A DNA stretch of 64,000 nt from Eledone cirrhosa. Lineage: Eukaryota. Both the position numbers and the translations under genes were made by a program. Of the stretch, positions 6,251 to 54,897 are shown one piece after another (the stretch's first letter is position 1; every line of letters begins with the position of its first letter). Below the pieces are notes generated by a model. It saw only the letters and a list, made by a program, of their open reading frames with translations. It was not told where the DNA came from and did not search any database. Where the stretch lies: the NCBI GenBank assembly GCA_964016885.1, contig OZ024742.1, positions 117,738,001 through 117,802,000 on the forward strand. Direction: 5' to 3'.

Positions 6251-7183
6251 ATGGAAACACACAAAACCAATCTTGCATTTATAACAATCAACTTCACCTT
6301 CTCTTCTATTGGTACCACAATATGCTTTATTTCACTTGTGTATAAACTTTTCAAGGGAATACCTTTACCAAAATTGTGGAAATATTCCATTTGTTTAGTT
6401 GATACTTCAGCATTGTTCTTTGGAATTGGTTTGTTGATGCATCTTTGTATTTTAATACTCAATGGAACAACTCCAAAATTTCTCATGTTGGCATCATCAA
6501 GTTTAATGTTGTTTGGATATATGGATGGCTTGTGTTCTTTTATAACATTCCAGACAATTTTATTATTTGTACAGAATCCCAGAAAAATAACCAGTACTTC
6601 AAGCTATCAACTTGGTTCCTCTATTATAGTACTCACTGGGATAAAGCTTGCTTGTCTATTACTTTCTATCTTGCCGGTCATACCCAAACAAGAGCAACTA
6701 AAACCTTCAACAAATAACCTCTTCCCTCTTTATGATCCCCAGGAATCTGGAGGTACTTACACTTCTTTATTAGTAATCTGTTTCTGGATAGTCATTGTGA
6801 CCACATTGATTTTTAATATCATTGGTGTAATAAAATCCCAGAAAAACACCAATTTGGTACAAGACTCTAATGAAGACATGTGGCATGTTGCCACCATATC
6901 TCAAGGACAGATATTGCACAAAATACTCTTAGTTGAACAATGTGTTTACACTGTTGTGAGCATCATGATAACACGGCTACTTTTTCGGCAGTCTGTTTCC
7001 CAGACAACCCACAGCAATGACCATGATGCAGCAATTATCATGGTTAGTATCCATCTCACACTCCATGGAATTTTCACTAACCTTGGTAATGTTCTGTGGA
7101 TGAAGAAAGTATGTTGTGGAAAACAAAATGGCCTCTCAGAGGAATCTCGTCATCTGAAACGACTGGAGCTCTTACGAACTGAG
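6251..7183 (+). CDS. Coding exon 1 of a 7TM-pseudokinase gene: seven hydrophobic segments plus the start of kinase subdomain I
   Basis: First in-frame ATG at 6251 after an in-frame TAA at 6206. An acceptor TTTTCCTAG lies at 6057. Seven ~20-aa hydrophobic stretches are visible by eye. Donor GAG|GTAAGT at 7183/7184, phase 0. Confidence 0.85.
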
Positions 7184-7639
7184 GTAAGTGTTATATGTTG
7201 TTATGTTTTTTTCTATTTTGTTTATTAAATCCTATATTCTTTCCAATCATTTTTATATCTGATTTTCAGTACTTACATGGATTGGATTTTTGTTGCAGAG
7301 TTTCTACATTTACTGAACTGCTATGCTACAGAGTACATTGTATATAGGGGACATAAAAAACATCACTGTCCAATTCTCCTAACTTTACTCCTCCTGAAGA
7401 AGGACTAACATCCAATATGTTGAGACAACCTTTTTCCTTTTACAACATGTGTGAAACTAATATGACTTTGTGTGTGTATGTGTGTATGCATATATATTCC
7501 AGCGAAGTAAAATGGATGTAAAATGAGGTTCATGTTATATATATTATCATCATTCAACAACTATTTTCCCTAATATATATATATTATGCCCATCCTTTAC
7601 ATCTATGAAATCTACTTAGTAAACATAAGTTGAATTTGG

Positions 7640-8230
7640 GCTAGAGTGAACTTCTTAAGCCAGGGATTGGGTGGAGCAGAAAGATGGGTACACAATGTAA
7701 TTGATGTAGTTAGGGTGATAGAATTATTAAGTTTTGGCTAACCCGATATAAAACAACTATGACAATTATCTCTGCATATGCATCACAATCATCACTGACA
7801 AATGAACTGAAAGACAAAATAACAAGTGATGGTGATTTTATTATCATGGCTGTTGCTTTGAATGGACATGTTGGGCAATGTTGTTCAGTACAAGAAATTA
7901 GGAGATATCAAGGCTCCAGGAATTCTGAAATACCAATGATCTGACTATCTGCAACACTAACTTCAGAAACTTGGCCAGTTTAATCACCTATGAGTCAGGA
8001 GAGTACACTAGCCAGATAGATTTTATTTTCACTAGAAATCATGATAGACTAATTGTTGCAAACACAAAGTTCCTCCATGGTTAGAAGTATACTTCCCAAA
8101 AATTTAAGTGACTTTAGAATTAGAGCTAAATAAACCTAGAGACAAAAGTCAATTTGGGAGAAAGAACATGGAAGCTGAGAGAATGTTCAACTATTGACAA
8201 ATTCTTTCTCCAAAAGAATATATACTGACT
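7640..8230 (+). mobile_element. Degenerate RTE-type AP-endonuclease fragment
   Basis: ORF 7759 MTIISAYASQSSLTNELKD...FIIMAVALNGHVG resembles the xxISAYAPQ...GDFNGHVG motif. The rest is broken by stops. Confidence 0.6.
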
Positions 8231-8719
8231 TGCTTATGGAAACACTATTTCCATAATATGCTAATGCAGACATAGTCAAACTACATTGAGTCATCCAGAC
8301 TGTATCTAGATATGATATTCTATACATCAGTAGACAAAAATAGGATACAATTTAAAGTGGTCGACTATACAGACCACACATTTATGATCTATGGGTTTAG
8401 CTAGATAAGCTTTATAAGCAAAGATTGGTTACTGGAAGCTGAAAATATTATTCCCAACATGCAATGCTTATGGAGACTGGATTAATGAAATGGTTCAGAA
8501 AACATTGATGAAGGCAATAATCAACAACAAATAGTGGTTTACCCAGAGAAGGGCAATGGGCTTGGGTGGCTTAGGTATGACATGGAAACAAAGCCACAAT
8601 TCAGTTTTTTGGCAGACCATAAGTGCATTCTACTTCATTCCAAACATATGAACAGTTTTTCAGGAGCACTTTACTCAACTGCTTGGGATGAATGGCTGGT
8701 CTGATTGCAGGATGAACTT

Positions 8720-9440
8720 CAGTGACTAACTTGACAGCCTGCTGCAATGCTCAGCAATAGAGGTGGCGTACTGCAAAAGCCAATGAAATATGGGAGACAA
8801 TTGCTGTCAGTACGAGGGGGAAATTGCCTAGCTTAGATGGTCTGCCATATAAACATTTCACTTATATGCCAGACCTCTCAGCAATCTCTTCCTAGATGTC
8901 TAATACAACTGGCAGCAGAATAGGAGTATCCCCAATTGTGTCATTCAAGTGTGGTGGTGCTTCTGAGAAAGGACCTGAACAAGGGAGACCATATCAACAA
9001 TTTTTGGTCCATACTAAATGTAGAGTTCAATCATTTGGCTAGTCTTTTCCAGAGGACTTTTGATCCAACACATATGGGTAATTTCAAGAAATCCTTGGAT
9101 TAGTAGTGCTACAGAGGTGGGTTCATTGACAGTTCATTATAGACACTACTAATACAGAAGTGCCATTAGCAGGGCCTATTTGCGATGCAACAAAACTATC
9201 CTGCATGCACTCATTCAGTGTCTAAGAATTGTTGACTTGTAGAGTTATGTTTCACTGCTGCTATTGTACATAGGTCAGATCTGGCTCTCAGCTGAGTCCA
9301 TAGTGATGATTCCCACACTGCTTTCCTTTGGCCAGGAAAGGCAGGCACTTTTATCTGTCTGGTGGCCATGGTAAAAGAGTTATGTGTTGGACAGGATTAA
9401 AAAGGCTGAAGGCAGATACTTTCCTCTTTGGCACACATCT
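8720..9440 (+). mobile_element. Highly degenerate Tx1-like LINE remnant
   Basis: Nucleotide similarity to the antisense of 46733-49672, for example the GLDGLPY and LSAESIVMI...LVAMVKE segments. Confidence 0.55.
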
Positions 9441-10008
9441 AAACAAAATTTACACAACTTAAAGAAAGCCAATAACATGATAAAAACCAACCCACTATAT
9501 ATATAAGTCTCATTTTATATTTGACTGCATCTGTTCTTATTTACAAGGAGATTGTTTCTGTTTTTTAATCTACACATTCTGGATATCTCTACTTCCAGGT
9601 GCTTTATTTGGATAATTCCACTATTTTGTCAAAAAATACATTATTATATTATTCAATCTTTATGTCAATTTGGGGATACGTTTTACTCATGATTATTTTA
9701 ATAATAATTTCTGGGAAATTTTGTTAAAACTCTTTCTACCTTGGTGGCTCTATTTTATTATTCCCCTAAGCACTTTTATGACACTAATTCCCTAAGACCA
9801 GTAGAGTAGTGAAAATCAGTAGGTATATATACCATATCTGTACAAAAATTGCTCTAAGTTTATAAATAATAAAAATAAATGCATTGATATCATGTTGTAA
9901 ATTTTTAAGACCGTTTGTGGCCTGTTTTTGTACTCTCTAGTTTCTGTAGTTATTCCATAATGCTAGTTTATATTTTTCAGTATATAAAATATTGGATAGT
10001 AGACTTAA

Positions 10009-10229
10009 ACCTTTAACATTTACATTACTCTATATTTACTATTATATTTTCATGGTAAAGGATTTGCCTCAAATAATTATCTCACATAATATCGAATCTA
10101 TGATATTTTGATATTATTTATTTTGAGAACAATATCTTAACATCAGTATGGGGGGCTGGTTATGGCCGGTTTGAACAGAAAGCGGTGAGAGAATTCTGGT
10201 CAGATATGGCCGGTTTAAATGCTAAAGGG
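10009..10229. mobile_element. piggyBac-type MITE
   Basis: TTAA at 10005-10008 and 10230-10233 flank imperfect TIRs (ACCTTTAACATTTA / TAAATGCTAAAGGG). A second copy lies inverted at 11837-12057. Confidence 0.75.
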
Positions 10230-10959
10230 TTAATCATCACCTAATACCACCACCACTTGGCCTTTTGGGGCTTTTAACAGAATACATTCTGTAACAAGCA
10301 TTCAAGCTAGGTTTCTAGTAATAAAATAACTTCCTTTTAACAATGGCAGAGGTCATGAAAAAAGTAATGACTGTTGCCCATCTTCCTCTCTTTCAAATGG
10401 AAGTCCATCCACTTCCAGGGGCGAAATTATTTCTGATAAAGATTTTGGTGTTTTTGTAGTGACAGTTATTTCACAGAGAGGATTAAGCAGCCAGAAATAA
10501 TACAATTGATTGTTATTTCTCATCCTCCACATAATCTACAGTTACTTTTTATATTTTTCCTCTCTGTATATTTTTTAGTAGTTTCTAGTAAGAAATCTGG
10601 TCTTTTCAAAACATTTTCTTCATCCACTTTAGTTTTCAGTCTTGTTGAGTATTGGCCAAGTGGAGTATTTTCTTGGCAATGTCTTACTTAGCATGACATT
10701 TTGAAGTCTCATTTTTATTCCAGTTTTTATTTTTTAATACTTTCTGTAATTATTTTCCATCCTCATCTTAAGTGTCTGTTATCTCAGCCTCTGTTTTATA
10801 TCTACAGGGATGAAGCACTTTTTATTTGTTTTCTTCATGTTTTGTAGCTATTTTGTATTAATTTTTATTTATTATTTACTATAAATTTTTGTAGTCCTAT
10901 AGTAGATATTTTATAATAATTTTCTAGTTGCAGTCAACCTCTGCTTGGCTGCCTACTTT

Positions 10960-11150
10960 ATTCTCCTCTTCTCTTTCTCCTCCTCCTTCCTCTACTTCAT
11001 CTCCCTCCCTCTTTTTCTCTTCCTCTTTCTCTTCCTCTTCACCTTCTCTTCTGTCCTCTTTCCCCTTACTCCTCTTCCTCTTCTTTCTCTGCCCCTTCTC
11101 TCCCTCCTCCCATCTCTTCCTCTTTTTCATCATCATCATCATCATTATCA
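10960..11150. repeat. CT-rich low-complexity tract followed by (CAT)n
   Basis: Visible directly. It produces the spurious poly-Ser and poly-Glu ORFs at 10924-11302. Confidence 0.85.
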
Positions 11151-11836
11151 TCCACCCACTTTCCATGCTGGTACAGATTGGACAGTATTTATGCAGAGTT
11201 ATTGTCTTCCTAGATGGGTTTCAATTTTTGGCATGGTTTCTACGGCTGGAAGCCCATCCTTACACAAACCACTTTACAGCATGTAAAACAGCCACCAAAT
11301 AATTCATGTCTAATCAACAAAACCTGAAACTCATAACCAAACAATATATAAATTGAAAATGGAAAACCCCTCCATTATGGGTCCCACTGAAAGAAAGTAA
11401 ATATTAACATGAAAACATTGATAGAGTGAAATATATATTATTTTATTTGTGAGGTAATATTTATATCTGAATGAAACAGAATTCTACAAACTATTTAGAA
11501 TAAGTTATGATGAACTTACTATTTAAAAATATGAAAAGTTTTGGTCCAACGTTCCATAGCAGAAATTAGATATTCCCTTATATTTACAAAGTGGGAGAAT
11601 GTTGGATAGAATGCTTTAAAGTGTTTGTTCAGGCTCTCTGCTCTCTGAATTCAAATCTCACTGAAGTCACCTTTGCCTTTTATCCTTTTGAGATTGATAA
11701 AATAAGTATCAGCCAGTATGGGAGTCAATTCTTCCTCTATATCTCTTTCTCACTGCCTCTATTTAATCTCTTTCCTCCTCTGGAAGCAATTGATTGTGTT
11801 CAGACATGGAGAGAGAATGGGTTCCTCCAGGTTTAA

Positions 11837-12057
11837 CCCTTTAGCATTTAAACCGACCATATCCAGCCAGAGTTCTCTTACTTCTTTCTGTTCAAACTGG
11901 CTGTAACTGTCCACTTAGACTTATGTTAAGGTAATGTCCTTAAAATAAATAATATCAACATCTCATAGATTCGATATTATGTGAGATAATTATATGAAAT
12001 AAAGTGTTTACCATGAAAATATGATAGTAAATATAAAGTAATGTAAATGCTAAAGGA
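11837..12057. mobile_element. piggyBac-type MITE, inverted relative to 10009-10229
   Basis: TTAA|CCCTTTAGCATTTAAACC ... GTAAATGCTAAAGGA|CTAA. The interior is the reverse complement of the 10009 copy. Confidence 0.75.
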
Positions 12058-12982
12058 CTAATATGTCCAAGAAATACCATATGCCACTATGATGCTCCAC
12101 TAAGAGTGACAGGCCTACACATACCCACATACTGTGTCTATCTTATTTTTCCTTTTATTTGTGTTTATTTTCTGTGTAGCTCCTTCATTCCTAATTTTTT
12201 TGTAAGTTTGTATTTCATCTGGTTCTTCTTCTATCTCAAATTCTATATCTATAATGATATTATTGGTTATATCAATTTTCCAATCTTTAAAGCGACTTTT
12301 GTTAGCTCATTAATTCTTAAGTATTTGTAAGTTTGTATTTCAACTAGTTCTATATATGTTTTTGCATCTAACATGATATTACTAGTTACATTAATTTTCC
12401 ACCCTTTAAAATGACTTTGGTACATTTTCCAAACCAAATTTTGTGTCAATTTCCTACCAAATCTTTAAAAATATTTTAAAATATGTAGTCAGAAACTTGA
12501 GGTCATTCATACACAAGAGATTATTGATTGTTCTACTCCCCAATAATGTTTTTATTAATTTCTGGTTTGGTTTATCATATTGTTTAATGGGCATTAGTGT
12601 CAGACAGAAAAGCATTAGAGAGACAGAATTGACAGTTATTGGAGCATTGCAGTATTTGTTCTGGCTCACTGCACTCTGTGTTCAAATCTCACCAATATTA
12701 ACTTTACCTTTCATCATTTCAGGCTCGATAAATAAAATACCAGTGCTGAATGGTGGATTGGCAAACTTGTTAGAATATCAGATATATGTCATGCAGTATA
12801 TCTGTTCTGGTTTAGTGTATTCTGAGTTCAAATCCCACCTCCTATCACTGGAAAAATGGTGACATGGTAGAACTAGGGCTCCAATCATTAAAGTGTAATA
12901 TAACTAGTATTGCCAGACCTAAGCACTACTAAGAAATATATAGTTTTAAGGAACGAATACAGTGTTGTATGATAATTTAAAT

Positions 12983-13277
12983 CAGAAGTTCTCAAACGTT
13001 TTGGGCTACTGGCCACCTCATGGCCACATAATACCCTCAGCACCCCCAAACCCTATTTCCAGAGAGACCTGCCTACACACAAATTGTAAATAATATATGA
13101 TATATAATATAATATATACTATGTATAAATAAATATTATATATTCTTTTTATTTTACTATATTTATATATAATATGTATCATTTGATATTTAATATACTA
13201 TTATAACATCTTTACCACAGCCCCCTAGACCTTTTCAATGTCCCCCGGGGCAGTAGCGCCCACTTTGAGAACCTCTG
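12983..13277. mobile_element. hAT (Charlie-like) MITE
   Basis: TIRs CAGAAGTTCTCAAA / TTTGAGAACCTCTG and a perfect 8-bp TSD ATTTAAAT at 12975-12982 and 13278-13285. Confidence 0.9.
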
Positions 13278-13659
13278 ATTTAAATTAATGTCTGGGGAAA
13301 ATACTTTTCAGGAAAGAGTATCACCCAATATTCATCAGTAAGTGAGTTTGACACTGTTCAAGGTTTCTTAGGAAGCAAGATGGTCTTTTACTTAATGTCT
13401 ACTTAATCCATTTCTGCATTACAAAGTTTGAGACAATAATTTTGCTACTGCAGAATTTTGCTAACACACTTATAACAGATATCAAGCTATTTGACAAACT
13501 AAGAGAATCTATGTTATGATAAACATTTTGAATAAACATAGGTTCTCGAGTTTTAGGTGTTTATTTTCTCTAAGAATTAGGTTTTATACATTAATTATAT
13601 TTTTTAACACATTTTCTCAAAACAAAGTGACCTACTCGAAACTGCTCCTTTTGCACTGG

Positions 13660-15420
13660 GCATTGATGATATAACCAAGATGGGAGTTGACTTAGATTTG
13701 AATGTCTGGTATCTGGATGATGCTTGTTGGGGGATGGGGGATGGGGGAGGGGGTCCTCCAGAAAATGTCCTTGCAATCACGAAGAGAATGATTGAAGAAC
13801 TGGGTCATTGGGGCCTTCATGTCAGTAGTTCCAAATATGAGCTCTGGCTCCTTAATCACCCAGCTTCACATCAGCAGAATGTTGACCTGTTTACAGAGTC
13901 CTTCCCCTCCATCACGGTTTCTCCCTCATCAGCGTGGTACTTACTTGAAGCCCGAATTATTGACCAAACCTTCACATCCATCTTTTGATCTAAGTTAGTT
14001 AATATCGACCAACTTTTAAAAACCTTAAAGCCATTGAGCCACACCAAAGTTTTTTTATACTTAGGAATTATTTGTCAATTCCTAAGTTGTTGTATTTCCT
14101 CAGAGATAGTCCCTTTTAAAAATTCTCGTCAACTCTCCAATACTTTGATGACCTAATATTCAGTGTGCTCAAGGGTCTGGTCAATGTCTGTCTCTCTCCA
14201 GAGTCCCACAACCAGTCTGCCTTGCCCAAACGGTTTGGAGGTTTTGGTCTGCATAAATGCTTATCTTTGTCCCTACCTTGCTTTCTTTCTTCCATCTATG
14301 CTTGCTCCTCTTCAGTAGATTAGTTCCACCAGGGAAATGGTGAAGCTTTGCTACAGTGGAGACAGTTGTGTTTTTCAGCTCCCAATACTGATAAGGATAG
14401 ACAGAAGCAGAGAGTATGAAACAATCTTCATTCGAGCAAAAGTTTTAATTCTCTCTTTGATCATTCTGATCAATTTTCTAGGTGTTGCTTACTTTCTGCA
14501 AGTGCTAAGTTCTCGGGGGACTGGATTGATCCCCTGTCTGTGGCCAGCATTGGTGGTCTTCTCAGTCAGGAAGAACTCCACATCTCCATTGCACTCCAAA
14601 TAGGAGCCGATGTCTGTGGGGGACTGAGATATTACGTGTGGTAGCTCCGTTGACTCCACAGGCCTACATGGTTTGTCCTGCTGCCTGAATGCTGGTTGTT
14701 TTGCCTGCCACACCAAGCTAAACCTGATCATTAAATGGCCCTAGCTCGGGTAAATATCCCCTCAGTTCTGGAGCCAGCTGGATTATCCAGAAGTGATAGA
14801 ATAATCCCTGGGTAAGAGGTAGGTGTCTCATCTGGGATGCCACAGTCAGTGACTATTTTGCTCCTTCCCACAACATAAATGCTGCTGTAAATGTGGGTGG
14901 GTGGGGGGTCACTGCTTCCGTTGCCGAATAAAATAAAATCTGAAAATACCGGGATCTATCTAATAATTATTTTTTCCAGCCTGTGACGTTTGAGACATTT
15001 GATGGAGTTGGGCCTCTGACAGTGAATTTCTTGTCATCACTGGTGGCTTGCCTTACTCAGGTGTAAGGTGATGCCCATGAGGGTGCCTGTTTGTTTCAGT
15101 ACCTTAGCCTCGTCACCATGGCAATGCTGCGAGCCTATTGGCTTGTTTTAAAATATTCTGTTGACCCTTGTGATGTGTGAGTGATTATCACACTTGGTGG
15201 TGAATTGATAGTCACTTTTGTTTTTGTTTCCCTTTTTTTTTTCTTTTCTCTCACTTTGGTCATATATTTTGGTGCATTGTATTTGTGGGGTTCCTAGCAA
15301 TAGTAGATTTTATTTGTTATGCATGTTTTTATTTTCATTCTAAAAGAATTGTGAGCAATTTGTAATGTTATTTAAAATAAAACGTTGAATAAAATATGAT
15401 AAAGAAGTAAAAAAAAGAAA
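13660..15420 (+). mobile_element. Degenerate CRE-clade non-LTR retrotransposon (RT C-terminal half, Zn knuckle, RLE)
   Basis: LNVWYLDD RT motif (ORF 13680). Downstream broken frames give GLHGLSC...H, LEPAGLSRSD, IPWVRGRCLIWDATVSD and KYRDLSNNYFFQPVTFETF. An A-rich end lies near 15410. Confidence 0.75.
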
Positions 15421-16118
15421 GGAACCCGTCTCAATTTACCAAAACCTCAGCAATGTTTTCGTCAATTAATATTTATTGTTAGGTGCAATCATTGCTATGT
15501 GGTGAAGAAGTTTGGTTTGCAACCACATTACTTGAATTTAATCCTACTGTATGATATATTCAGCTTTACACTGAACAATGCCTTGCAAATGAATTTGGTA
15601 GGCAGAAATTAAGAGGAAAGCCATCATATATGTGTGTGTATTGGTTTCTCTTCATGTGCCTTTATATCAACAGGTGGGTAAAGATGAATGATATGTGTCG
15701 TTCATAGAAAAACATAACAGGTGGTTAGCATTAAGAAGGACACCTGACTATAGAAAAACATTAAAAATCTCAGCCAACCCATGCCAACATGAAAAAGTGG
15801 ACATAAAATCAATGATGACAATGATGACGGTTTAATTAGTACTGTTTTATTTCATGATGTATGTCAGTACGAGCACATGCTTCCAACTATTCTATTTTAT
15901 TTTTGTCAAGTTCATGGTAAAATATTTTTGAGTTGCAGTCTTTTTCAAAGAATCATTGGATTCTTTGCACTTTGGTGATAATTTCTTGTTTCATGCCTTC
16001 TTTGATTTCAGGTATTTCTGTTTTTGTTTTGTTGTATTTTGATAGTATTTGTATCTTTTTTTCTTGACTGATTGAGGGAACAGCTTATATTGAACTCTAT
16101 TTCATTAATATTTTACAG

Positions 16119-16360
16119 CATTCTGGTAAACATCATTTCCTAGCTTCATGGATTGATAATAAGAAATCTCTTCAAATGGGTCTAATGAAAACCTACAGTC
16201 AAAATTGGCAGAAACTGTGGGCACAGGAAATAATGGTTCTTGGAATGTTACGAAAGGTGAAACACCCAAATTTATTACAGTGTCTTTGGACAAGCAACGC
16301 TAATCCTTATTATGAAATTGTTTCTTTGCTCAGTCAAGATACAGTTTCTAGTGATTCAAG
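16119..16360 (+). CDS. Coding exon 2 of the 7TM-pseudokinase gene (kinase subdomains I-IV)
   Basis: Acceptor TTTTACAG at 16118, phase 0. Encodes HSGKHHFLASW...GLMKTYSQNWQKLWAQEIMVLGMLRKVKHPNLLQCLW (beta3 Lys, alphaC Glu, HPN loop). Donor AAG|GTAT at 16360, phase 2. Confidence 0.85.
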
Positions 16361-16489
16361 GTATTATTATTATTTTTTTTTAATTGAAACTTCCTTTGAA
16401 TTCTGCTTCTTTCCCAAATCATGCCGAGTGTCAGCCTGACACCTGGGAAAAATTATTATTGTTTAGCTTTTTATAGAGGTTTAGCGATT

Positions 16490-17330: not shown

Positions 17331-17571
17331 ATTCGTAACGCTTTTGCTCTGACAGATGTTATACCGACACTATACCAAAAGAGTGAGCCATAACAAATGG
17401 TCAATTTTCTAACACTCTCCTTAGAATGTTTGCTGATCCTAACAAGGTTGTTTTCTGCAACAAGCTCTTTACATTCTGAGTTCAAATACTGGTGCCAATA
17501 TAATTGACTTTCTCCTCCCCACAAATTTTAGGCCTTGTGCCTAGGTTAGAAAGCATTATTGTTGTTGTTTT

Positions 17572-17767
17572 GGAGCAGTGGATTGGCAGTATCGGTAGAG
17601 GGTCAGACGCCAGGCTTTGCAGCAAAGTGTTATGGCCCTTTATGGTCTGAGTTCAAATCCCGCCGAGGTTAACTTTGCCTTTCATCCTTACGGGGTCGAT
17701 AAAATAAAGCACCAGTAATACACTGGATTAATTGCTGGCCTTGTGCCAAAAGTAGAAACAATTATTG
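17572..17767 (+). mobile_element. tRNA-derived SINE (family A)
   Basis: Full-length, consensus-like copy. Confidence 0.85.
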
Positions 17768-18164
17768 TTGTTGTTTTCTTCATTTTACTCAGCATTTCAC
17801 TGATCTGCTATTATTTGGATTGGCCTTGGGCCTAAATCAGAAACCATTATTCGGATTGTTAAATATCAAACTATCTCATGCAGCCGTAGGCATCATTTGT
17901 ATGGTTCCTGCTGTGCCAAACATACAAGCATAACTAGCCAAAACTATAAATCTGACAGACACAGAACCAGGAAATATTTAAGAGACATCTCAAAGGCTTG
18001 AAATTTTCATTGGGTTTTATAACTGGTTGTCTTGTGATCAAAACTTTCTAGAACATTTGAAAATAAAGACAGGGCTGAGCATAAAATGTTGACATGTTAG
18101 TTGACAGGTTAAGGTAGCCAAGGAATGGTGACAATCTAGGGTAAAAATATATGATTCATAGACA

Positions 18165-21100
18165 TAGTGTGTTGTATATGTTGGTAGTGAGTTGTATATA
18201 GTTGTAGTATTATATATGTTGGTAGTGTGTTATATATAGTGGTAGTGTGTTATATATGTTGGTAGTGTGTTGTATATAGTGGTAGTGTGTTATATATAGT
18301 GGTAGTGTGTTATATATAGTGGTAGTGTGTTATATATAGTGGTAGTGCGTAGTATATATGTTGATAGTGTGTTCTATAGAGTGGTAGTATTATATATGTT
18401 GGTAGTGTGTTATATATAGTGGTATTCTGTTATATATAGTGGTATTGTGTTGTATATGTTGGTAGTGTGTTGTATATAGTGGTAGTGTGTTATATATGGT
18501 GGTAGTGTGTTATATATAGTGGTAGTGTTTTATATATAGTGGTAGTGTCTTATGTATAGTGGTAGTGTGTAGTATATAGTGGTAGTGTGTTATATATAGT
18601 GGTAGTGTGTTATATATAGTGGTAGTGTGTTATATATAGTGGTAGTGTGTTATATATAGTGGTAGTGGTTATATATAGTGGTAGTATGTTGTATATAGTA
18701 GCAGTGTGTAGTATATATAGTGGTAGTGAGTTGTATATAGTGGTAGTGTGTAGTATATAGTGGTAGTGTTTTGTATATAGTGGTAGTGTGTTGTATATAG
18801 TTGTAGTATGTTGTATATAGTGGTAATGTGTATTATATAGTAGTAATGTATTATATATAGTGGTAGTGTGTTGTATATAGTGGTAGTGTGTTATATATAG
18901 TGGTAGTGTGTTGTATATAGTGGTAGTGTGTTATATATAGTGGTAGTGTGTTATATATAGTGGTAGTGTGTTATATATAGTGGTAGTATGTTGTATATAG
19001 TGGTAGTATGTAGTATATAGTGGTAGTGTGTAGTATATAGTGGTAGTGTGTTGTATATAGTGGTAGTGTGTTGTATATAGTGGTAGTGTGTTGTATATAG
19101 TGGTAATGTGTTATATATAGTGGTAGTGTGTTATATATAGTGGTAGTGTGTTATATATAGTTGTAGTGTGTTATATATAGTTGTAGTGTGTTATATATAG
19201 TTGTAGTGTGTTATATATAGTGGTAGTGTGTTATATATAGTGGTAGTGTGTTATATATAGTGGTAGTATGTAGTATATAGTGGTAGTGTGTAGTATATAG
19301 TGATAGTGTGTTGTATATAGTGGTAGTGTGTTGTATATAGTGGTAGTGTGTTGTATATAGTGGTAGTGTGTTATATATAGTGGTAGTGTATTATATATGG
19401 TGGTAGTGTGTTATATATAGTGTTAGTGTGTTATATATAGTGGTAGTGTGTTATATATAGTGGTGGTGTATTATATATGGTGGTAGTGTGTTGTATATAG
19501 TGGTAGTGTGTTGTATATAGTGGTAGTGCATTATATATAGTGGCAGTGTGTTGTATATAGTGGTAGTGTGTTATATGTAGTAGTAGTGTGTTATATATAG
19601 TGGTAGTGTGTTATATATAGTGGTAGTGTGTTATATATATAGTGGTAGTGTGTTATATATAGTGGTAGTATGTTGTATATAGTGGTAGTGTGTAGTATAT
19701 AGTGGTAGTGTGTAGTATATAGTGGTAGTGTGTTGTATATAGTGGTAGTGTGTTGCATATAGTGGTAGTGTGTTATATATAGTGGTAGTGTGTTATATAT
19801 AGTGGTAGTGTGTAGTATATAGTGGTAGTGTGTTATATATAGTGGTAGTGTGTTATATATAGTGGTAATGGGTTATATATAGTGGTAGTGTGTTGAATAT
19901 AGTGGTAGTGTGTTATATATAGTGGTAGTGTGTTATATATAGTGGTAGTGTGTTATATATAGTGGTAGTGGTTATATATAGTGGTAGTATGTTGTATATA
20001 GTAGCAGTGTGTTATATATAGTGGTAGTGTGTTGTATATAGTGGTAGTGTGTAGTATATAGTGGTAGTGTTTTGTATATAGTGGTAGTGTATTGTATATA
20101 GTTGTAGTATGTTATATAGTTGTAGTGTGTTGTATATAGTGGTAGTGTGTTGTATATAGTGGTAGTGTGTTGTATATAGTGGTAGTGTGTTATATATAGT
20201 GGTAGTGTGTTATATATAGTTGTAGTGTGTTGTATATAGTGGTAATGTGTATTATATAGTAGTAATGTATTATATATAGTGGTAGTGTGTTGTATATAGT
20301 GGTAGTGTGTTGTATATAGTTGTAGTATGTTGTATATAGTGGTAATGTGTATTATATAGTAGTAATGTATTATATATAGTGGTAGTGTGTTGTATATAGT
20401 GGTAGTGTGTTATATATAGTGGTAGTGTGTTATATATAGTGGTAGTGCATTATATATAGTGGCAGTGTGTTGTATATAGTGGTAGTGTGTTATATATAGT
20501 GGCAGTGTGTTGTATATAGTGGTAGTGTGTTATATAGTTGTAGTGTGTTGTATATAGTGGTAGTGTGTTATATATAGTGGTAGTGTGTTGTATATAGTGG
20601 TAGTGTGTTATATATAGTGGTAGTGTATTATATATGGTGGTAGTGTGTTATATATAGTGTTAGTGTGTTATATATAGTGGTAGTGCATTATATATAGTGG
20701 CAGTGTGTTGTATATAGTGGTAGTGTGTTATATGTAGTGGTAGTGTGTTATATATAGTGGTAGTGTGTTATATATAGTGGTAGTGTGTTATATATAGTGG
20801 TAGTATGTTGTATATAGTGGTAGTATGTAGTATATAGTGGTAGTGTGTAGTATATAGTGGTAGTGTGTTGTATATAGTGGTAGTGTGTTGTATATAGTGG
20901 TAGTGTGTTATATATAGTGGTAGTGTGTTATATATAGTTGTAGTGTGTTATATATAGTTGTAGTGTGTTATATATAGTGGTAGTGTGTTGTATATAGTGG
21001 AAGTGTGTTATATATAGTGGCAGTGTGTTGTATATAGTGGTAGTGTGTTGTATATGTTGGTAGTGTGTTATATGTAGTGGTATTGTGTTATATATAGTGG

Positions 21101-21582
21101 TAGTGTGTTATATAGTTGTAGTGTGTTATATATAGTGGTAGTGTGTTATATATAGTGGTAGTGTGTTATATATAGTGGTAGTGTGTTATATATAGTGGTA
21201 GTATGTAGTATATAGTGGTAGTGTGTAGTATATGGTGGTAGTGTGTTATATATAGTTGTAGTGTGTAGTATATAGTGGTAGTGTGTTATATATAGTGGTA
21301 GTGTGTAGTATATAGTAGTAATGTGTTGTATATAGTGGTAGTGTGTTATATATAGTGGTAGTGTGTTATATATAGTGGTCGTGTGTTGTATATAGTGGTA
21401 GTGTATTATATATAGTGGTAGTGTGTTATATATAATGGTAGTGTGTAGTATATAGTAGTAATGTTTTGTATATAGTGGTAGTGTGTTGTATATAGTAGTA
21501 ATGTGTTATATATAGTGGTAGTGTGTAGTATATAGTAGTAATGTGTTGTATATAGTGGTAGTGTGTTGTATATAGTAGTAAT
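18165..21582. repeat. 3.4-kb minisatellite with a 20-bp unit (AGTGGTAGTGTGTTATATAT), in intron 2
   Basis: Roughly 170 tandem units are visible directly, with recurring variant blocks. Confidence 0.98.
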
Positions 21583-22974
21583 CATCATCATCATCATCAT
21601 CATAATCGTTTAACGTCAATCTTCCACGCTTGCATGGGTTTGGACGGGAATTTTCCCACTTGAGGTAAGATTGGTTGTCTTGCTCGTAAAGGACTGTCTG
21701 GCAGGTTTTCTATGACTGGATGCCGTTCCTAACACCAACCACATTTACAGTGTGGACTGGGAGGTTTTTACCGTGTTACCTACACGGCCACATTACAGCG
21801 TGGACTGTGTTTTTTGTCATGACAGCTACACAACCTCATTTGTTTCGAACTGGATGTTGTGGTACCAACATAACTTTACATTGAAAGGGTGGTGTGGATG
21901 GGGTGGGGGTAGTGGGACAGGGGTGTATTTTTGTTAGAGGTGCCTACTGACTGTAGGTTTCGCTTTGTACTTAGGCAAGGCGGGTCTTCTGTATTACTGT
22001 GTAGTGCTAAAGATGTCGGTCCAGTGACATTGTCTTGGAGAGGTGTAAGTGTGTGAGGTCGGAATTTATCAAGTCGTCCCAGGTTTTTCTGGGTCTGCCT
22101 ACTCCGTGGCTACCGTCGATTTTTATCGCCCTGCACTTTTTTATACAACTGTCATCTTTCATGCACATCACGTGACCGTACCAACGTAGTCTTCTCTCGA
22201 GTAAACAACATCTCATCCCGCTTATTCCTAATTTCTCTCTTAGTTCGTTTATGCTTTGCCGTTCACGTATATTACTATTTCATATCCAGCGGAGCATGCA
22301 AGCTTCGTTCCTCTCCAGTCTCCATATATCCTCTGCACACAGTGCCCAAGTCTCACTGCCATGTAACATTGCTGTTCGTATGCAGGCATCATACAGCCTG
22401 CCTTTCATTTTTAGAGAGAACCCTTTAGCGGTCAATAGTGGTATAAGCTCTCTGAACTTTTTCCATAACATTTTGACTCTAGCTACTGTACTTTCAGAGC
22501 ACCCTCCACCACTGCTGATTTTGTCACCCAGGTAACGGAAGGTGTCCACTATTTGTATAGAACCATCTGTGCAATGGAATGAGCTAGTATTCCACAGGTG
22601 TCCACTATTTCTATAGAACCATCTGTGCAATGGAATGAGCTAGTATTCCACAGGTGCAATAAGCAGCACTTGCTGCTACTTATTGCACCTGAGCACCGGC
22701 AACATATAAAATCTATATTCTTAGTTAGCTTACCTGTGATCCCATTACATCTTTTATGCACCCATACTTTGCCTTTGGGACATAAAATGGAGTTTCTGCC
22801 TACTCCTTTTCTATACACTGAGCATGGCCATTTCCCAGATGGGACCGGTGCCCTATTTTCCTTCCTACAAACTAGTACTTTAGTCTTAGACAGGTTAATT
22901 TTAAGGCCTTTTGATTCTAGGCCTTGCTTCCATGTTTGGAATTTCTTCTCTAGTTCAGCCATTGATTCAGCTAT
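21583..22974 (-). mobile_element. 5'-truncated RTE-clade LINE
   Basis: ORFs 22549-23094, 22280-22630 and 22007-22216 give GLKINLSKTKVL, a PHD-like Cys cluster, FRYLGDKI, MLHGSETW and RRLRWYGHV...GRPRKTW. (ATG)n tail; ~56-bp tandem duplication near 22541-22656. Confidence 0.92.
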
Positions 22975-23592
22975 GTCACGTTCACGTGTTTTTGAGTGGT
23001 GCAAGAGGTTTAAAGAAGGACGCGAGGACGTGGAAGATGACCCCAAGAGCAGAAGGCCCTCAACAACCAGGACTGAGGTCAACATTGAGCGCATCAGGCA
23101 GATGGTGCATAGCGATCGTCGGCTGACTGTTCAACTGATGGAAAATGAGCTGGGCATGAATCAGGACAGCGTCTGGAAGATTCTCACTGAATATTTGGAC
23201 ATGCAGAAAGTCTGCGCGAAGATGGTGCCAAAACTGCTGAACGATGACCAGAAGGGTCGACGCATACAAGTGTGCCAGGACATCCTCAAGCATCTTAAAA
23301 CCGAACCAGACTTGCTAGGGACAGTCATCACCGGTGGTGAGTCATGGATCTTCGAGTACAACCCGGAGGGGACACGTTTTGAAGACATGGACGGCATCAA
23401 AAAGGCCGTGACGACGGAACTGCGGAAGATCCCGGAAGGATCCTTCCAGGAGTGCATGCAAGCATGGCAGAAAAGGATGGAAAAGTGCATTATACTCCAG
23501 GGGTTTACTTTGAAGGAGAAAACTCTTGTGTGAAGTTTGGGTTTGAAATAGATCCTTTGTGACATCAGTCCTGGAACTTTTCTGACTCATCT
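22964..23592 (+). mobile_element. Mariner transposase remnant (internally deleted, left end missing) with a right TIR-like end
   Basis: DSAMSRSRVFEWCKRFKEGREDVEDDPKSRRPST...KVCAKMVPKLL...VITGGESWIFEYNPE jumps straight to GTRFEDMDGIKKAV...WQKRMEKCI, so the central catalytic segment is deleted. Confidence 0.9.
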
Positions 23593-23596
23593 CATG

Positions 23597-25165
23597 ATCA
23601 TCACCGTTTTATGTCCGTTGTTCCATGCTAGCATGGGTTAGACGGGTTGTCCTGTTGTGGGCAGTGTCTGGTCGGCTGACCATGCTTTGCTCATACAGGA
23701 ACTGATTTTGGCTTGATTTCTACAGCTGGATGCCCTTCCTAACACCAACCTCATTTACAGTGAGTGCTGGGTGCTTTTTTCTGTGGTGCCTACACGTCCA
23801 CTTTACAGTGTGGGTGCTTTTTTGCCGTGGCACCTCCATGACCACTTTGCAGTGGGAGGGTGTGGGGGCATATTCTCTATATGCTTCAGCTTCGGCTTGT
23901 ACCCATGGGAGGTCGGGTACTCTGTATTACTGCGTGACGCCAGAGGTCACGGTCATGTGTCATCGCCTTTGAGGGGTGTAATTGGGTAAGGTCGGCTTTT
24001 ATCACCTCATCCCAGGTCTTCTTGGGTCTCCCCACTCCGCGGTTTCCATTGACTTCTAGTGCTCTACACCTTTTTATGCAGCTGTCATCCTTCATACGCA
24101 TCACATGTCCATACCAACGCAACCGCCTCTCCTGCACACAGCATTTGATTCCTTTATGCTCAGTCTCTCTCTCAATTCATTTATGCTTTGCCGTTCACGT
24201 ATATTACTATTACACATCCATCGGAGCATGCAGGCTTTGTTTCTTTCTAATCTATGTAAGTCTTCCACCTTCAGCGCCAGGTCTGACCTACACCTTTCCT
24301 ACATACTGAGCAAGGCCATTTCCCTGAGGGGATCTGGGTTCTGTTTTCTCATCTACTTACAAGGACCTTAGTCTTTGTCAGGTTGACTTTGAGACCCTTT
24401 CTTTCTAGTCCCTGTTTCCAAGTTTGGAATTTCTTCTCTAGTTCTACCATAGATTCAGCTATAAGTGCGAGGTCATCAGCATACAGGAGTTCCCATGGGC
24501 ATCCGGTCTTAAACTCCTCCGTTATTGCCTGCAGGACTATGATGAACAGGAGAGGGCTAAGAACAGAGGTCTGTTGGACACCGACCTGTACGCTAAATTC
24601 TTTGCTATACTCATTGCTAATCCTAACTTTGCTGACTGCTCCCCTATACATGGCTTGTACAGCTTTCACAAGCCATTCATCTACTCCTAGTTTTCTAAGA
24701 GCCCACCAGATTACAGCAAGTGGAACTCTGTCAAAGGCTTTCTCGAGATCGACGAATGCCAGGTAGAGTGGCTTACTTTTAGCTAGGTACTTTTCCTGTA
24801 ACTGCCTCACAAGGAAGAGGGCATCAGTGGTGCCTCTTTCTGGTACAAACTCAAATTGCATCTCATCTAGTTTCACCCGGTCCCTAATCAACTGTGCTAT
24901 AACTCTTTCTGTTACTTTCATGACCTGGTCCATCAGCTTTATACCTCTATAGTTTCCTCTATCTAGTGGATCACCTTTACCTTTGAAGCAGTTGACAATG
25001 ATGCTACTGCACTAATCTTTGGTATGACACCTTCTAGTATTACCTGGTTAACAATACGTGTGGTTATAGTGTGACCTACAGACCCAGATGCCTTCAGCAT
25101 CTTGGCAGCTATACCCAATGGACCGGTTGCCTTCCCCATCTTCATATCTTTGATGATTGCCTTAA
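23597..25165 (-). mobile_element. Second RTE-clade LINE fragment, internally deleted
   Basis: ORF 24349-24933 has RT motifs (AFVDLEKAFDRVP, GVQQTSVLSPLLF, LLYADDL). ORF 23886-24137 has RRLRWYGHVMRM. A 3' UTR and (ATG)n tail follow. Confidence 0.92.
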
Positions 25166-25349
25166 GCTATACCCGATGGCTCGTATAAATATATATATAT
25201 ATATACATATATCATTATGATCATCATCATTTAATGTCCGCTTTCCCTGTTGGATGGATCAGCAAAATTATATTATATATATATTGAATTAAAATATTTA
25301 TTGTATTTGCAAAACTGAAATATATTCAAAAGTGATTATTTTGTTTTAG

Positions 25350-25545
25350 GATAATCTGTATGGAATTTCCTGAATATGGATGTCTGCGAGAATATCTTAA
25401 GAATATGGAGACCCCATTGTCTGCAGCCACACAATGTATGATTATAAGGGATGTATCACAAGGTTTGAAACAGCTACACCAATTAGATATCCTCCACAAG
25501 CATCTCTCCTCCATCAGAGTGTACCTTAGATGCAACAATGGAAAT
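25350..25545 (+). CDS. Coding exon 3 of the 7TM-pseudokinase gene (subdomains V-VIb)
   Basis: Acceptor TTGTTTTAG at 25349; the first base completes the phase-2 Arg codon. Encodes IICMEFPEYGCLREYL...IRDVSQGLKQLHQLDILHKHLSSIRVYL. Donor AAT|GTAAGA at 25545, phase 0. Confidence 0.88.
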
Positions 25546-25796
25546 GTAAGACATACATTACTTTACAAATAATTCATTGCAAATAAATAACAATAAATTA
25601 GTTTTAAGTTTGTCAGAGATTGATCCAAGATTACAGAAATGGCTATATGGTAGGTTTGTTTATTATCATGTGGTTCTGAGTTTGATACCACTGTGCAATA
25701 CCCTGTTCAAGTGTCTTTTGGCTACTCAATATATTGCCAAAGCTACAAATGCTTTCGGCAAGCTCCATCATATATGATCATTGAATCTTAGTTGTC

Positions 25797-25989
25797 ATAA
25801 TTGTTTCTACGTTAGGCACAAGGCCAGCAATTATCCAGTGTATTACTGGTACTTTATTTTATCAACCCCGTAAGGATGAAAGGCAAAGTTAACCTTGGCG
25901 GGATTTGAACTCAGAATGGCAAGGGCTGTAACTCTATACGTCAAAGCATGGCATCCGACCCTCTACCAATACTGCCAATCCACCGCCCT
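25797..25989 (-). mobile_element. tRNA-derived SINE (family A)
   Basis: Reverse complement of the family A consensus. Confidence 0.85.
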
Positions 25990-26150
25990 CCTAGTTGTCA
26001 TAATGTGATTTAAATTTAGTTATGTTTTTCATTAACATTTTTTTAATATTAGTTTTAGAATATTAAATTTTATATCCTGATTGTGACTTCAATTCCAAAA
26101 TGAATATAACCATGTATATCCAATGGCAGCAAATTGTTAAGGTCATTAGA

Positions 26151-26425
26151 ATCATCATCATCATCATCATCATCACCGTTTTACATCCATCTTCCACTCT
26201 AGCATGGGTTAGATGGGTTGTCCTATTGTGGGTTGTCTTGCTCATATGGGAACTGATTCTGGCTTGATTTCTACAGCTGGATGCCCTTCCTAACCCCAAC
26301 CTCATTTACAGTGAGTGCTGGGTGTTTGTTTTGTTTTTTTTTCCTTTGGCTCTTACACGTCCACTTTACAGTGTGGGCTGGGTGCTTTTTTTGCCATGGT
26401 ACCTCCACAACCACTTTGCAGTGGA
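26151..26425 (-). mobile_element. RTE 3' UTR fragment
   Basis: Matches 23597-23855 and has an (ATG)n tail. Confidence 0.8.
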
Positions 26426-26444
26426 ATGATAGGGATCCCAGTCA

Positions 26445-26580
26445 TATCATCTAATTTCTACAGCTGAGTAAACTGGAGCAATCTGAAATAAAGTGTCTTG
26501 CTCAAGGAAACAACACATCACCCAGTCCAAGGATTGAACTCACAACCTTTCAATTGCAAGCCCAATGCTCTAACCACTAA
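26445..26580 (-). mobile_element. tRNA-headed SINE of a second family
   Basis: The minus strand reads TTAGTGGTTAGAGCATTGG...GAGTTCAATCCTTGG...CCTTGAGCAAGACACTTTATTT (A box, B box, CORE-like segment). Confidence 0.6.
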
Positions 26581-27197
26581 ATAGGACAAAACGCTTTGTG
26601 GTATTAGTTCCAGCTTTCAGTGTTCTTAGTTGAAATCCCACTAAGGTCAACTTTACTTCTTTGAGGTGGTGTGGGGGATAAAATAAAAAAAACAATCTAA
26701 TGGTGTGGACTGGTAGAATTGTTAGAGCACCAGATAAAATACTTTGTGGTATCTATTCTGAATTTAAATCCTGTTGTAGCCTACTGAAGTGGTAGACATA
26801 ATCCATCACCTGGTTCAATGCCTCTACCTAACCCTTAGTTGCTTTTAGCAGAACCCACTTTGTTGCAAGCATTTGAGGCTGGTCATTAGTTTGAGGATAT
26901 CTTCCTCTCTCTTTCCCACCAGTTTTGGTGACCCTGAAAATGTTGTATATTAATGGCACTAATCTAATCCAGGCCTTACCTGGATCCCTTATTCCTGGAT
27001 GAGGGCTTCCCTTAAGATAACATAGACATTGCTATGCTTCTTCACACTTATAAATAAAGAGTACAGTGGCATGCTTATTTTTCACATAAATGCCATCCTA
27101 TTTTATACAAAGAGATTAAGAATTGCTGTGTATAGACATAGTAGCCATAACTACGTGATGATGATAGATAAATATTCTATTATTTTTCTCATTTCAG

Positions 27198-29699
27198 AAT
27201 TCATTGTTTCGTGCTTACCTTGGGGATTTTGAATATGTAAGCATATTTGGTTCTCAACTGCAAGGAGCAGATAACCCAACATGTAAGAATCGTCAAACAT
27301 TCTTCCTTCCAGACATTCGATCTTTTGCTCTGATTACTCTGGAAATGATTTTGTCAGTATGTGACAAATTAGTTCAAACGGCAGAAAATAATCAACACCA
27401 TATAAAGACAATGGAATCTAATTCACAAAGTAGATCTGAGGTAATGTTGAACAAACCAAACTCAACTCACTGGCAGCCATTAGTTAAACCTGGAAATAAA
27501 ACAGTCATAAAGAATAAAATTGGTTTTTTTCCAACAGCAAGTGAAGAAAGTTTAAATCAAAACTGGAGTGAAATGAATCCCAACTCGTTAGATAAAAGTA
27601 AATTTCCTCAAGCTCAGTCAAAAATAAAAATAATTTCTGTAGCCCCAGCTAACACAGCTACTGTTCCATCAGACCATCCTAAAAAAATTTTACGGCATTC
27701 TTCTTTTTCAACTGAGAATGAAGATTCCATTAGTAGTAACATTTCTATGCTTGGAGAAGCTGAGAAAGACAGTGTGAGTGAACTCAGTCCAAATGAATTT
27801 AATGACTTTATTTCACCGTATGAAGATAGCAGACATGATAATTTCTTTTCAGAAAATAAGTTTATTCATCGGAAAACATCTGTAGATTCTGATCCTTATA
27901 ATTACCACTGGAGCTTCTTTACAAATAAGCATGAAAATATGAGCTTCGTTTCCGATGAACAACATCCTAACAGTTTTTCTGAGGTGAATAATTTAAACAC
28001 ACCAGTAAATAGTAGAGATGAACATTCAGGTCATGAAACAGCAGCTTTTCATGAGGGAACTCAGAGTCATGTGGGAAAAGAAGTTAATAATATGACTGAA
28101 CAAGATTATGTTTTAGATGAAAACTACTTGAGTAAAGTCCAGAGAAAAAATAAAGCAAGAATGAATTTACAGGAAACACTGACTTCACGAGGAATGGCTT
28201 TTAATCATATTTTACCCCCAAAACAAATTAAAGACCCTTTTAAAAAAAGAAAACAATTTAATGATACACTGTCTCAGAAACCATCTCTAATTGAATCTTC
28301 CAATAAAACCATTCTTTCCTATCCTAATAGCTATTGTAAACCATATAATAGTAAATTCAATAATGACTTTAGGAAAACTACAAACAATTATCAATTCAAC
28401 AATTTTTGCAGTTATCAAACTAGCAACAGTTCTGTTCTAGAATCATCTCAGAATTCTTCTAGTGATTACACCAAAGATATATCTTGTCTTTCTTCAGCAA
28501 CAAAAGCTTTAACTCAAAAAATTCTCAGTGAAGAAAATACATTATTCCGAAGGAGTCATTCAATTGAAGATATACACAGAAAAATTATTGACAGTGGTTT
28601 TGAAACAGAATCTACTCCTTCCAACAGTTCCAACCAAATTATATGCCACTACAACCTTGAAAAACATCAATGTTTGGGGAATTGCTTTAATGCAGAAGAG
28701 AAATTCTCACAAAGTTCGGATGATTATTTATATGTATCTGACAACAATTTCAGCATGCAGAAAAATACATGTTCAGTATCCAAACTAGAAAATAACATAC
28801 ACAGTCCTCCTTCACATCAGAACAGTTTTATTTATCCGAAGTATATAAATGGTAATAGTTGTTCAAGAAATGATGAAAGAGTTGAGGTATCTTCTTACAA
28901 AGCCTATGACAACAAGATAGTTAATCAAACTGAACTTCCATCAATGAAATCTGAATTACAAAATAACAACATAGCTTCAAAACGATATAGAGAACTTAAA
29001 TGGAGAGGTATGCCATTGAAAATATCAATTGTGCCATCGGATACTTCTTCCAATTTTAACCAATTCTCAAAACATTCTCCCAGTGTATCAGTGTGTTCAA
29101 AAGTCACTACACCAGAGATGGAATCAAAAACATTTTTTTTTCCTCAACAAAAGACGAAGAAGGAGAATTATGATCAAACATGTAATGAAAGAAAAAATAG
29201 TTCTAGTTTATATAAACAATCGATTGATGGTAGTCCAGTATTTACAACTAAAGTAATTGGTAGCCCCTGTCCTCCTACACCAACAACTATTATTCCTAAC
29301 TCACTATTTATGACATCAGAAAAACCTGTACTTGAATCTCGTATCAGTTGTAATGACATACCAGAAATTGGTGGGAATTGGAAGATCGGCTCAGAAAAGA
29401 ACAATATACACAACCAAGACACTTTCTCAGCTCCCAGTCGGCAATTGAGTAGACTTAACAGTGCAACTTTATCTCACTGCTCCTCTTTATCTAACCTCAG
29501 TTTACCTGGGAAAACCATTCAAAGTAAATATAAACTTTTACCTGGAGTAAATGAACATCATCTGGGTTATTGTATTGATTTAGTAGAAAAACAGCCCTTT
29601 CTCTCTATGGACGACTTACTACCTGCTTCACAAAGTGCATTTATTCATCTTAAAGATAAGCTCAGTGCAACATGTGAACTAACAAATGCAACCAAACAG
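27198..29699 (+). CDS. Coding exon 4 of the 7TM-pseudokinase gene (subdomains VII and IX, then a long S/N-rich insert)
   Basis: Acceptor ATTTCAG at 27197, phase 0. A 2502-nt open frame with AYLGDFEY (DFG position) and PDIRSFALITLEMI (subdomain IX). Donor CAG|GTAAGA at 29699, phase 0. Confidence 0.9.
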
Positions 29700-30567
29700 G
29701 TAAGACATTTTTTTAATCTTACAATTTCTTAGCATTTATCCCACTTTGTAGAGATTCCACCACTTGTTATACTGATGAAACTGAGATATTAATTCAATTG
29801 ATACATCATTCCGTCTGAGATTGGAAGCCTTCACCATTAGCTGAGTCACCAAAACACATTTCTCACAGTGGAATAGAACTCAGAATGCAAAGAGCCAGAA
29901 CAGGTACATCAAGACATCTCATTTGATACCCTAATAATTCTATTTCAACCACCATAAACAGCTCCTTTATCTATTGACTCCTAAGAGATGAAAAGTAAAT
30001 TTGACCATGGAAGAATTTGAACTCAGAACACAGAAAGCCAGAACAAATACTGCTAGGTATTCTAGTGACTACCTTGTGAATCTTACAGCTAATTTACATG
30101 AATTCAAAGTAAAGGTTGGGTAGTGGTGGTATTGGTAATACATATATCAGTGGTAATGTTGGTGGTAATATGGTGATACCAGCAGCATTAAAGGAGTTGT
30201 TGTTTGTAATGGTGGTGGTGGTGAGTTGTTTAGTCCCATGTCAGGCCTAATCAAAGGCAGACTTGTGGTTAAAGGATCTCCAACCTTGACCATACAGTCT
30301 TTCCTCAGGCACATAATTCAATATGTCTTTTTTCCAGGATGGTAAGGTATGAATTAAGAGAGATTTGGCTCCTCAAATTTCTTGTGTTCTTGACAGTTGG
30401 AGAAATAGTTGAGATAGTAATGGTGATAGTGGTGGTGGTAGTGGTCATTTTCTTCTTCACACTTAATATCTTTGATAGTATATTGATGTATTCTACATTT
30501 GATTGTGTTGTATTATAGATATGTTGATATATTTTGCATTTTATTTGTGTTGTTATCTTTTTTGCAG

Positions 30568-30669
30568 TTAATGGATATAGTGGTATCATGTTGGTATACT
30601 GACCCACCACAATCAGCAGCCAAACTATGTGAACAACTGAAGGATCCAGTTATGGAAACAGCTGTTTAA
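30568..30669 (+). CDS. Terminal coding exon 5 of the 7TM-pseudokinase gene (subdomain XI plus C-terminal ETAV)
   Basis: Strong acceptor TCTTTTTTGCAG at 30567, phase 0. Encodes LMDIVVSCWYTDPPQSAAKLCEQLKDPVMETAV-stop, matching the kinase LxxxCWxxDP motif. Too short to appear in the ORF track. Confidence 0.82.
   Translation, partial: LMDIVVSCWYTDPPQSAAKLCEQLKDPVMETAV

Positions 30670-52041: not shown

Positions 52042-52043
<2 letters not shown>
50066..52043 (-). mobile_element. Second, partial copy of the Neptune-type Penelope element
   Basis: Reverse complement of about 42575-44559. Almost identical over 50066-51480 and more diverged over 51480-52043. Confidence 0.92.

Positions 52044-52070
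<27 letters not shown>

Positions 52071-54486: not shown

Positions 54487-54517
<31 letters not shown>

Positions 54518-54865: not shown

Positions 54866-54897
<32 letters not shown>

Follow-up and report, generated by a model that had tools for sequence, protein, structure and literature searches.

Does one animal gene encode both the fold of G-protein-coupled receptors (GPCRs) and a protein kinase fold? The question is raised by positions 6,251 to 30,669 of a 64,000-nucleotide stretch of the Eledone cirrhosa genome (assembly GCA_964016885.1, contig OZ024742.1, positions 117,738,001 to 117,802,000, forward strand), here called the window. On re-joining, its five exons gave a continuous frame of 1324 codons with a single terminal stop, and all four introns are GT-AG, in phases 0, 2, 0 and 0, exactly as claimed in an earlier reading made from the letters without database searches (the sequence-only reading). 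That reading described a seven-transmembrane (7TM) domain followed directly by ordered kinase subdomains I-XI. Both parts are present, but the kinase is not one run: subdomains I-IX occupy residues ~301-515, and the last part of the C-lobe, residues ~1236-1318, is reached only after ~720 low-complexity residues. Exons 1 and 2, when searched against the E. cirrhosa genome (3.0 Gb), each matched only themselves. The closest named proteins are from Octopus, with an identity of 85-86% in the 7TM and 94-95% in the kinase. The gene belongs to a real, conserved, ancient and apparently undescribed receptor-pseudokinase family.

The fusion could be an annotation artefact, a 7TM gene lying beside a separate kinase pseudogene. 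The first intron spans 8.9 kb. The sole sequencing-run contig over the E. cirrhosa locus runs through the intron, as DNA would; because of this, and with no RNA run from the species itself, the joining of its exons is shown only indirectly, through the sequences of relatives. However, the GT donor that closes exon 1 falls inside the first kinase strand, and the fusion recurs across independent assemblies from seven bilaterian phyla. Full-length frames are also found on short contigs. In the P0003 cluster (15 of 20 members listed) at least four members are the full 1393-residue frame on contigs of 4.7-5.4 kb, which are too short to contain introns; three members depart from the frame precisely where exon 1 ends and five precisely where exon 4 ends. 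The P0004 cluster has eight members, all 1309 residues long (contigs of 4.3-5.9 kb), and a scallop frame of 1828 residues lies on a 6.8 kb contig. Fragments nearest the bivalve members break at the same four intron positions, and cluster-mates read through at exactly these positions. We infer that the intronless contigs derive from mRNA. An artefact is already largely refuted and extremely unlikely.

The same architecture was looked for in relatives and was found there, with a range that extends beyond molluscs to deuterostomes and a cnidarian. Word-based searches (7 matches among 2146 candidates, then 21 among 7998) returned the fusion from cephalopods, bivalves and Aplysia. To these, a profile search over 1.84 billion representatives adds Biomphalaria, Plakobranchus, Patella, Lingula, Owenia, Watersipora, Ptychodera, Saccoglossus, Diadema, Antedon, Branchiostoma and Nematostella. 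The family covers cephalopods, bivalves, gastropods, Lingula, Owenia, a bryozoan, hemichordates, echinoderms and amphioxus, and the fusion is kept in seven bilaterian phyla and one cnidarian. Many 7TM-only frames (P0071, P0087, P0091, P0099, P0101, P0105, P0110, P0112-P0114, P0117, P0118, P0122, P0123, P0149, P0150, P0155, P0187) belong to the same family. They fall outside the mollusc group in the tree and most stop near the same intron position; they are likely the first exons either of genes in a second paralogue group or of members from other spiralians.

The seven helices of the original claim were recovered both as Kyte-Doolittle peaks (seven within residues 9-278) and in an AlphaFold2 model (seven long helices, from H8-34 to H255-289). 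The model has the rhodopsin fold of class A GPCRs, as had been expected, with the N-terminus outside and the C-terminus inside. All 50 fold matches listed are class A GPCRs, with LGR4 at the top, and the best PDB sequence match is RXFP1 (E 5.6e-14). The resemblance of the segment from transmembrane helix 4 (TM4) to TM5 to relaxin/GRL101 receptors is therefore borne out, and by sequence and predicted fold the 7TM is a member of the relaxin/GRL101 (type C LGR) lineage. DRY and NPxxY are missing, as stated before. Together with CWxP they are absent from the window and all 18 mollusc rows of the alignment, partial in deuterostomes and intact in Nematostella. Both cysteines of the disulfide between TM3 and extracellular loop 2 (ECL2) are lost in six of six cephalopod rows; of the 21 non-cephalopod rows, 20 have the pair and the remaining one is truncated. 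The ECL2 Phi-P-Phi motif is largely retained across the family, in the window without the Cys.

No bilaterian row has an LDLa and LRR ectodomain. Complete bilaterian relatives start within ~70 residues of TM1, and in the window an in-frame stop codon and a likely acceptor upstream of the start codon leave no room for an ectodomain on exon 1. In a 31-row tree of the 7TM (10 of 27 family rows were excluded as near-copies or truncated) 25 headless rows split off at 100/100 from the other six, which are Nematostella, two ordinary E. cirrhosa LGRs and three outgroups; the tree does not settle the sister of the headless rows. E. cirrhosa possesses two ordinary LGR genes with intact NPxxY (L006/L016 in G000:C5; L007, L008, L010 and L032 in G000:C4), and the first inner loop of the G000:C5 gene is closely similar to that of the Nematostella receptor. 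A kinase-like exon was sought downstream of these two LGR genes and was not found.

The two-lobed protein-kinase fold is complete. In the model of the O. vulgaris orthologue 254 residues align across the entire TGFBR2 domain, and of the 28 weak matches of the C-terminal profile, 27 place it on the H-I helices of ordinary kinases. The top fold match is a TGF-beta receptor kinase, with other TKLs within about 1 Z, in agreement with the TGF-beta/TKL likeness first seen in the N-lobe. The kinase is the most conserved part of the protein and the 7TM evolves much faster. The active-kinase motifs GxGxxG, HRD Asp, metal-binding Asn, DFG and APE are lost, which the sequence-only reading does not mention, and the Lys, the alphaC Glu and the Asp of DF remain. 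Judging from these residues, the split fold is likely catalytically dead. It could instead be an atypical receptor kinase that is active through other residues: Lys335, Glu348 and Asp467 are retained in 26, 27 and 24 of 27 rows, and Saccoglossus keeps the catalytic Asp and Asn. However, the glycine loop is absent from all 27 rows and the catalytic Asp from 26, different residues (H, N, R, S, A) occur freely in its place, and neither APE nor the matching subdomain XI Arg is present, which makes activity very improbable. The Saccoglossus protein P0208 has the catalytic Asp, metal-binding Asn, Lys, Glu and DF Asp in a gene model lacking TM6-7, and is the best candidate for residual kinase activity.

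The nearest active relatives of the family are P0159 and P0180, receptor kinases that cross the membrane once, retain HRD, DFG and APE intact and score 116 and 109 bits on the bilaterian profile; they may form an undescribed receptor family. A quick 38-row kinase tree, which includes no TGF-beta receptor and gives Nematostella a long branch, unites the 16 family rows (SH-aLRT 96) and places P0159/P0180 as their sister (100). The N-lobe of both is odd in the same way as that of the family, and both have a Frizzled-like Cys-rich ectodomain (Pfam match below cut-off in P0159).

The insert in the C-lobe separates helix F from the last conserved Cys-Trp by 400-1314 residues in complete rows (the truncated Solemya row was omitted). 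In the O. vulgaris orthologue the model confidence (pLDDT) is <50 for most of its length, and it is predicted to be disordered except for two short basic helices. One basic helix with a hydrophobic strand (residues 1052-1069) is likely a docking site. The window protein and 31 of 35 family proteins have a C-terminal end that fits the class I PDZ-binding consensus. Of the 28 full-length rows, 24 carry the motif D-S-G-hydrophobic-x-S/T in the insert (all 20 molluscs and four of the eight others), while shuffles expect 0.43; the surrounding stretch is poorly alignable. The rows are related and the motif counts not independent, so it is the spread over phyla that carries the weight. DSGxxS is given as the beta-TrCP degron in PMC3641602.

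What could such a protein do? The proposed sensor coupled to a kinase-fold scaffold is supported, with the amendments that the kinase proves to be a split pseudokinase and that the receptor has no ectodomain. The account we prefer, with roughly even confidence, is that a headless relaxin/GRL101-type 7TM with a split dead kinase serves as a membrane scaffold that works independently of G proteins and has a regulated turnover. The analysis shows the frame, both folds, the loss of catalytic and G-protein motifs and the conserved degron-like and PDZ motifs; beyond these we infer four steps. The 7TM would hold the kinase fold just beneath the membrane. The dead kinase, which may still hold a nucleotide via the Lys-Glu pair and the DF Asp, would bind and regulate a partner, for which an active receptor kinase of the TKL or TGF-beta type is plausible. 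The PDZ tail would anchor the protein in a membrane complex. Finally, another kinase would phosphorylate the DSG motif and SCF-beta-TrCP would be recruited and remove the receptor, perhaps with its partner, so that the signal ends.

Alternatively, a small molecule or peptide in the open pocket of the headless 7TM might move the pseudokinase and the signal might be passed allosterically, by analogy with receptor guanylyl cyclases, whose kinase-homology domain (KHD) works in this way. All seven helices are retained family-wide, as are, largely, Phi-P-Phi and, outside cephalopods, the TM3-ECL2 cysteines; in molluscs the kinase begins ~12 residues past the post-TM7 cysteines, so coupling could be tight. 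Ligand gating is nevertheless rather unlikely, given the much faster evolution of the 7TM, the loss of both cysteines in cephalopods, the long and variable linker of deuterostomes and the lack of any known ligand. Less probable still is a self-activated GPCR, in which ECL2 would be a built-in agonist without an LRR head, the G-protein signal constitutive and the pseudokinase a brake. The RXFP1 7TM without its ectodomain reaches 70% of maximum via ECL2 Phe564, according to 10.1101/2022.01.22.477343. The window has Phe158-Pro-Leu160 at the matching positions, and parts of CWxP and NPxxY survive in deuterostome rows, for whose proteins self-activation is more likely. In the window, however, the TM3 basic residue, TM6 Trp-Pro and TM7 Asn-Pro-Tyr are all substituted and the hinge residues required by RXFP1 are not evident.

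The Nematostella protein P0106 (LOC5517652, 3282 residues) bears on the origin of the scaffold. It has MAM, lectin, LDLa, CUB and LRR domains and a normal 7tm_1 (E 1.4e-33), that is, a full GRL101-like head, followed by a compact kinase-like tail without the insert. The tail is the same likely dead kinase: on a bilaterian profile made without it, it reaches 89 bits (best ordinary kinase: 65), and its 38 best non-self matches are all family members. It is possible, though the chances are clearly below even, that the family is an ancient undescribed class in which a relaxin-type GPCR gained a kinase and then dropped its head and G-protein switches, leaving a seven-helix sensor that signals straight into a built-in pseudokinase. 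In the origin that goes with the preferred account, a kinase domain from a single-pass receptor-kinase lineage would have joined a type C LGR before the split of cnidarians and bilaterians. The head would later have been lost and the insert gained in bilaterians, the G-protein switches lost in spiralians and the TM3-ECL2 disulfide lost in cephalopods. A second cnidarian case was sought and none was found.

Textbook animal signalling separates seven-pass GPCRs from kinase-linked receptors. If the above is true, a GPCR turned into an enzyme-linked type of receptor and is conserved from octopus to amphioxus. What GPCR-kinase fusions do and how a GPCR abandons G proteins becomes testable along a graded series: Nematostella has a complete LGR, deuterostomes have headless proteins with partial switches, and molluscs have proteins without switches. 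Nematostella, amphioxus, sea urchin, Biomphalaria, Aplysia and oyster are established animals that carry the family, and database labels on its members such as 'LRRK2' and 'RXFP2' are corrected. A literature search, which took in three locus ids and few subscription papers, found neither a GPCR-kinase fusion described in bilaterians or cnidarians nor this family. GPCRs with catalytic C-terminal domains are called rare or nonexistent in metazoans in PMC5784254, and a survey of GPCR-kinase fusions confines animal cases to sponges (PMC12716839; supplementary files outside the scope). A term search of PMC2246102 for the word 'kinase' gave no hit, and the portion seen of an ambulacrarian LGR study (10.1101/2021.04.15.440029) has no such fusion.

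Table. Positions in the window of the parts of the receptor-pseudokinase gene and of neighbouring features (aa, amino acids; UTR, untranslated region; LINE, long interspersed element).
Feature	Position	Strand	Remarks
Probable 5'-UTR acceptor AG	6056-6057	+	from sequence
In-frame TAA ahead of start codon	6206..6208	+	from sequence
Exon 1 (aa 1-311)	6251..7183	+	class A GPCR fold, LGR lineage (aa 8-289), then first kinase strand
ECL2 L-F-P-L (aa 157-160)	6719..6730	+	equivalent of RXFP1 C-Phi-P-Phi tethered-agonist motif; Cys lost
Cys-Cys following TM7	7112..7117	+	presumably a palmitoylation site
Exon 2 (aa 312-391)	16119..16360	+	kinase N-lobe without GxGxxG loop
beta3 Lys335 (exon 2)	16188-16190	+	retained
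alphaC Glu348 (exon 2)	16227-16229	+	retained
Family-specific insert behind beta4 (exon 2)		+	
Intron 2 repeats	18000-25011		~3.5 kb of tandem sequence with a strong G skew, followed by remnants of mariner-like and reverse-transcriptase type
Exon 3 (aa 392-457)	25350..25545	+	hinge to catalytic loop; metal-binding Asn replaced by Arg448; Pfam PF07714, E 1.2e-7
H-K-H in place of HRD (exon 3)	25495-25503	+	
Exon 4 (aa 458-1291)	27198..29699	+	DFE, helix F, insert, start of C-lobe end
DFE (exon 4)	27225-27233	+	
Ser/Asn-rich insert, ~720 aa	27372..29531	+	within kinase C-lobe; from composition
D-S-G-F-E-T (aa 922-927)	28590..28607	+	beta-TrCP-type phosphodegron-like, in insert
Basic helix and short hydrophobic strand (aa 1052-1069)	28980..29033	+	conserved, in insert
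Beginning of C-lobe end (exon 4)	29532-29699	+	
Exon 5 (aa 1292-1324)	30568..30669	+	kinase helices H-I, class I PDZ-binding end, stop
C-terminal E-T-A-V	30655-30666	+	class I PDZ-binding end
Retroelement copies, inverted	42574-44559 and 50065-52044		Penelope-like; arms 775 and 560 nt, 100% complementary
LINE reverse transcriptase	48305-49042		between the two Penelope-like copies
Nested inverted repeats	53977-57105 and 57342-60000		230-290 nt, 95-100% complementary; GIY-YIG-type remnants within
Pfam GIY-YIG	59150-59587		
tRNA-Asp(GTC) gene	61305-61376	+	

Among known systems, the type C LGRs (RXFP1/2, GRL101) share with the family the 7TM lineage and ECL2 C-Phi-P-Phi, and the Nematostella member has their LDLa, LRR and 7tm_1. 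The bilaterian members differ in having no LDLa/LRR head, the molluscs in having no DRY, CWxP or NPxxY, and the C-terminal tail is a kinase fold; an LGR survey that includes cnidarian LGRs left tails aside as poorly conserved (PMC4079206). The sequence-only reading was right that 7TM-kinase fusions are known in oomycetes and Dictyostelium, but that range is too narrow. GPCR-TKL proteins are reported in oomycetes and amoebozoans (with Dictyostelium 7TMK1/2, described in PMC1420674), GPCR-TKL/K in choanoflagellates and GPCR-TK in sponges and choanoflagellates, none of them functionally characterised (PMC12716839). The architecture as such, a 7TM with a C-terminal protein-kinase domain, is therefore of a known kind. 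In contrast to these fusions, the window 7TM is an LGR, its kinase is degenerate and split, and the range is bilaterian plus one cnidarian. Since LGRs were not detected outside animals (PMC4079206), separate descent from the protist, choanoflagellate and sponge fusions is likely, and the family is likely an independent form of GPCR-kinase fusion, found in animals that were believed to lack such proteins.

TGF-beta/activin receptor kinases (TKL) are only 15-19% identical to the window kinase and were ranked first by no sequence search; they are single-pass, whereas the window protein is seven-pass and lacks the glycine loop and the catalytic Asp. In the pseudokinases KHD, JAK JH2 and MLKL the beta3 Lys is retained, while the catalytic loop has undergone a loss of the Asp-to-Asn type. 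The loss in the family is similar, and MLKL and TYK2 are among its weak sequence matches, but no cyclase, second kinase or four-helix domain accompanies its kinase fold, and the C-lobe has an insert of 400-1300 residues. LGR4/5/6 form a scaffold with ZNRF3, a ubiquitin ligase, instead of signalling via G proteins, and their complexes with ZNRF3 are among the fold matches of the window 7TM, as is LGR4 at their top. Unlike the window family, they are of the type B lineage and combine a large LRR head with a tail that has no kinase fold.

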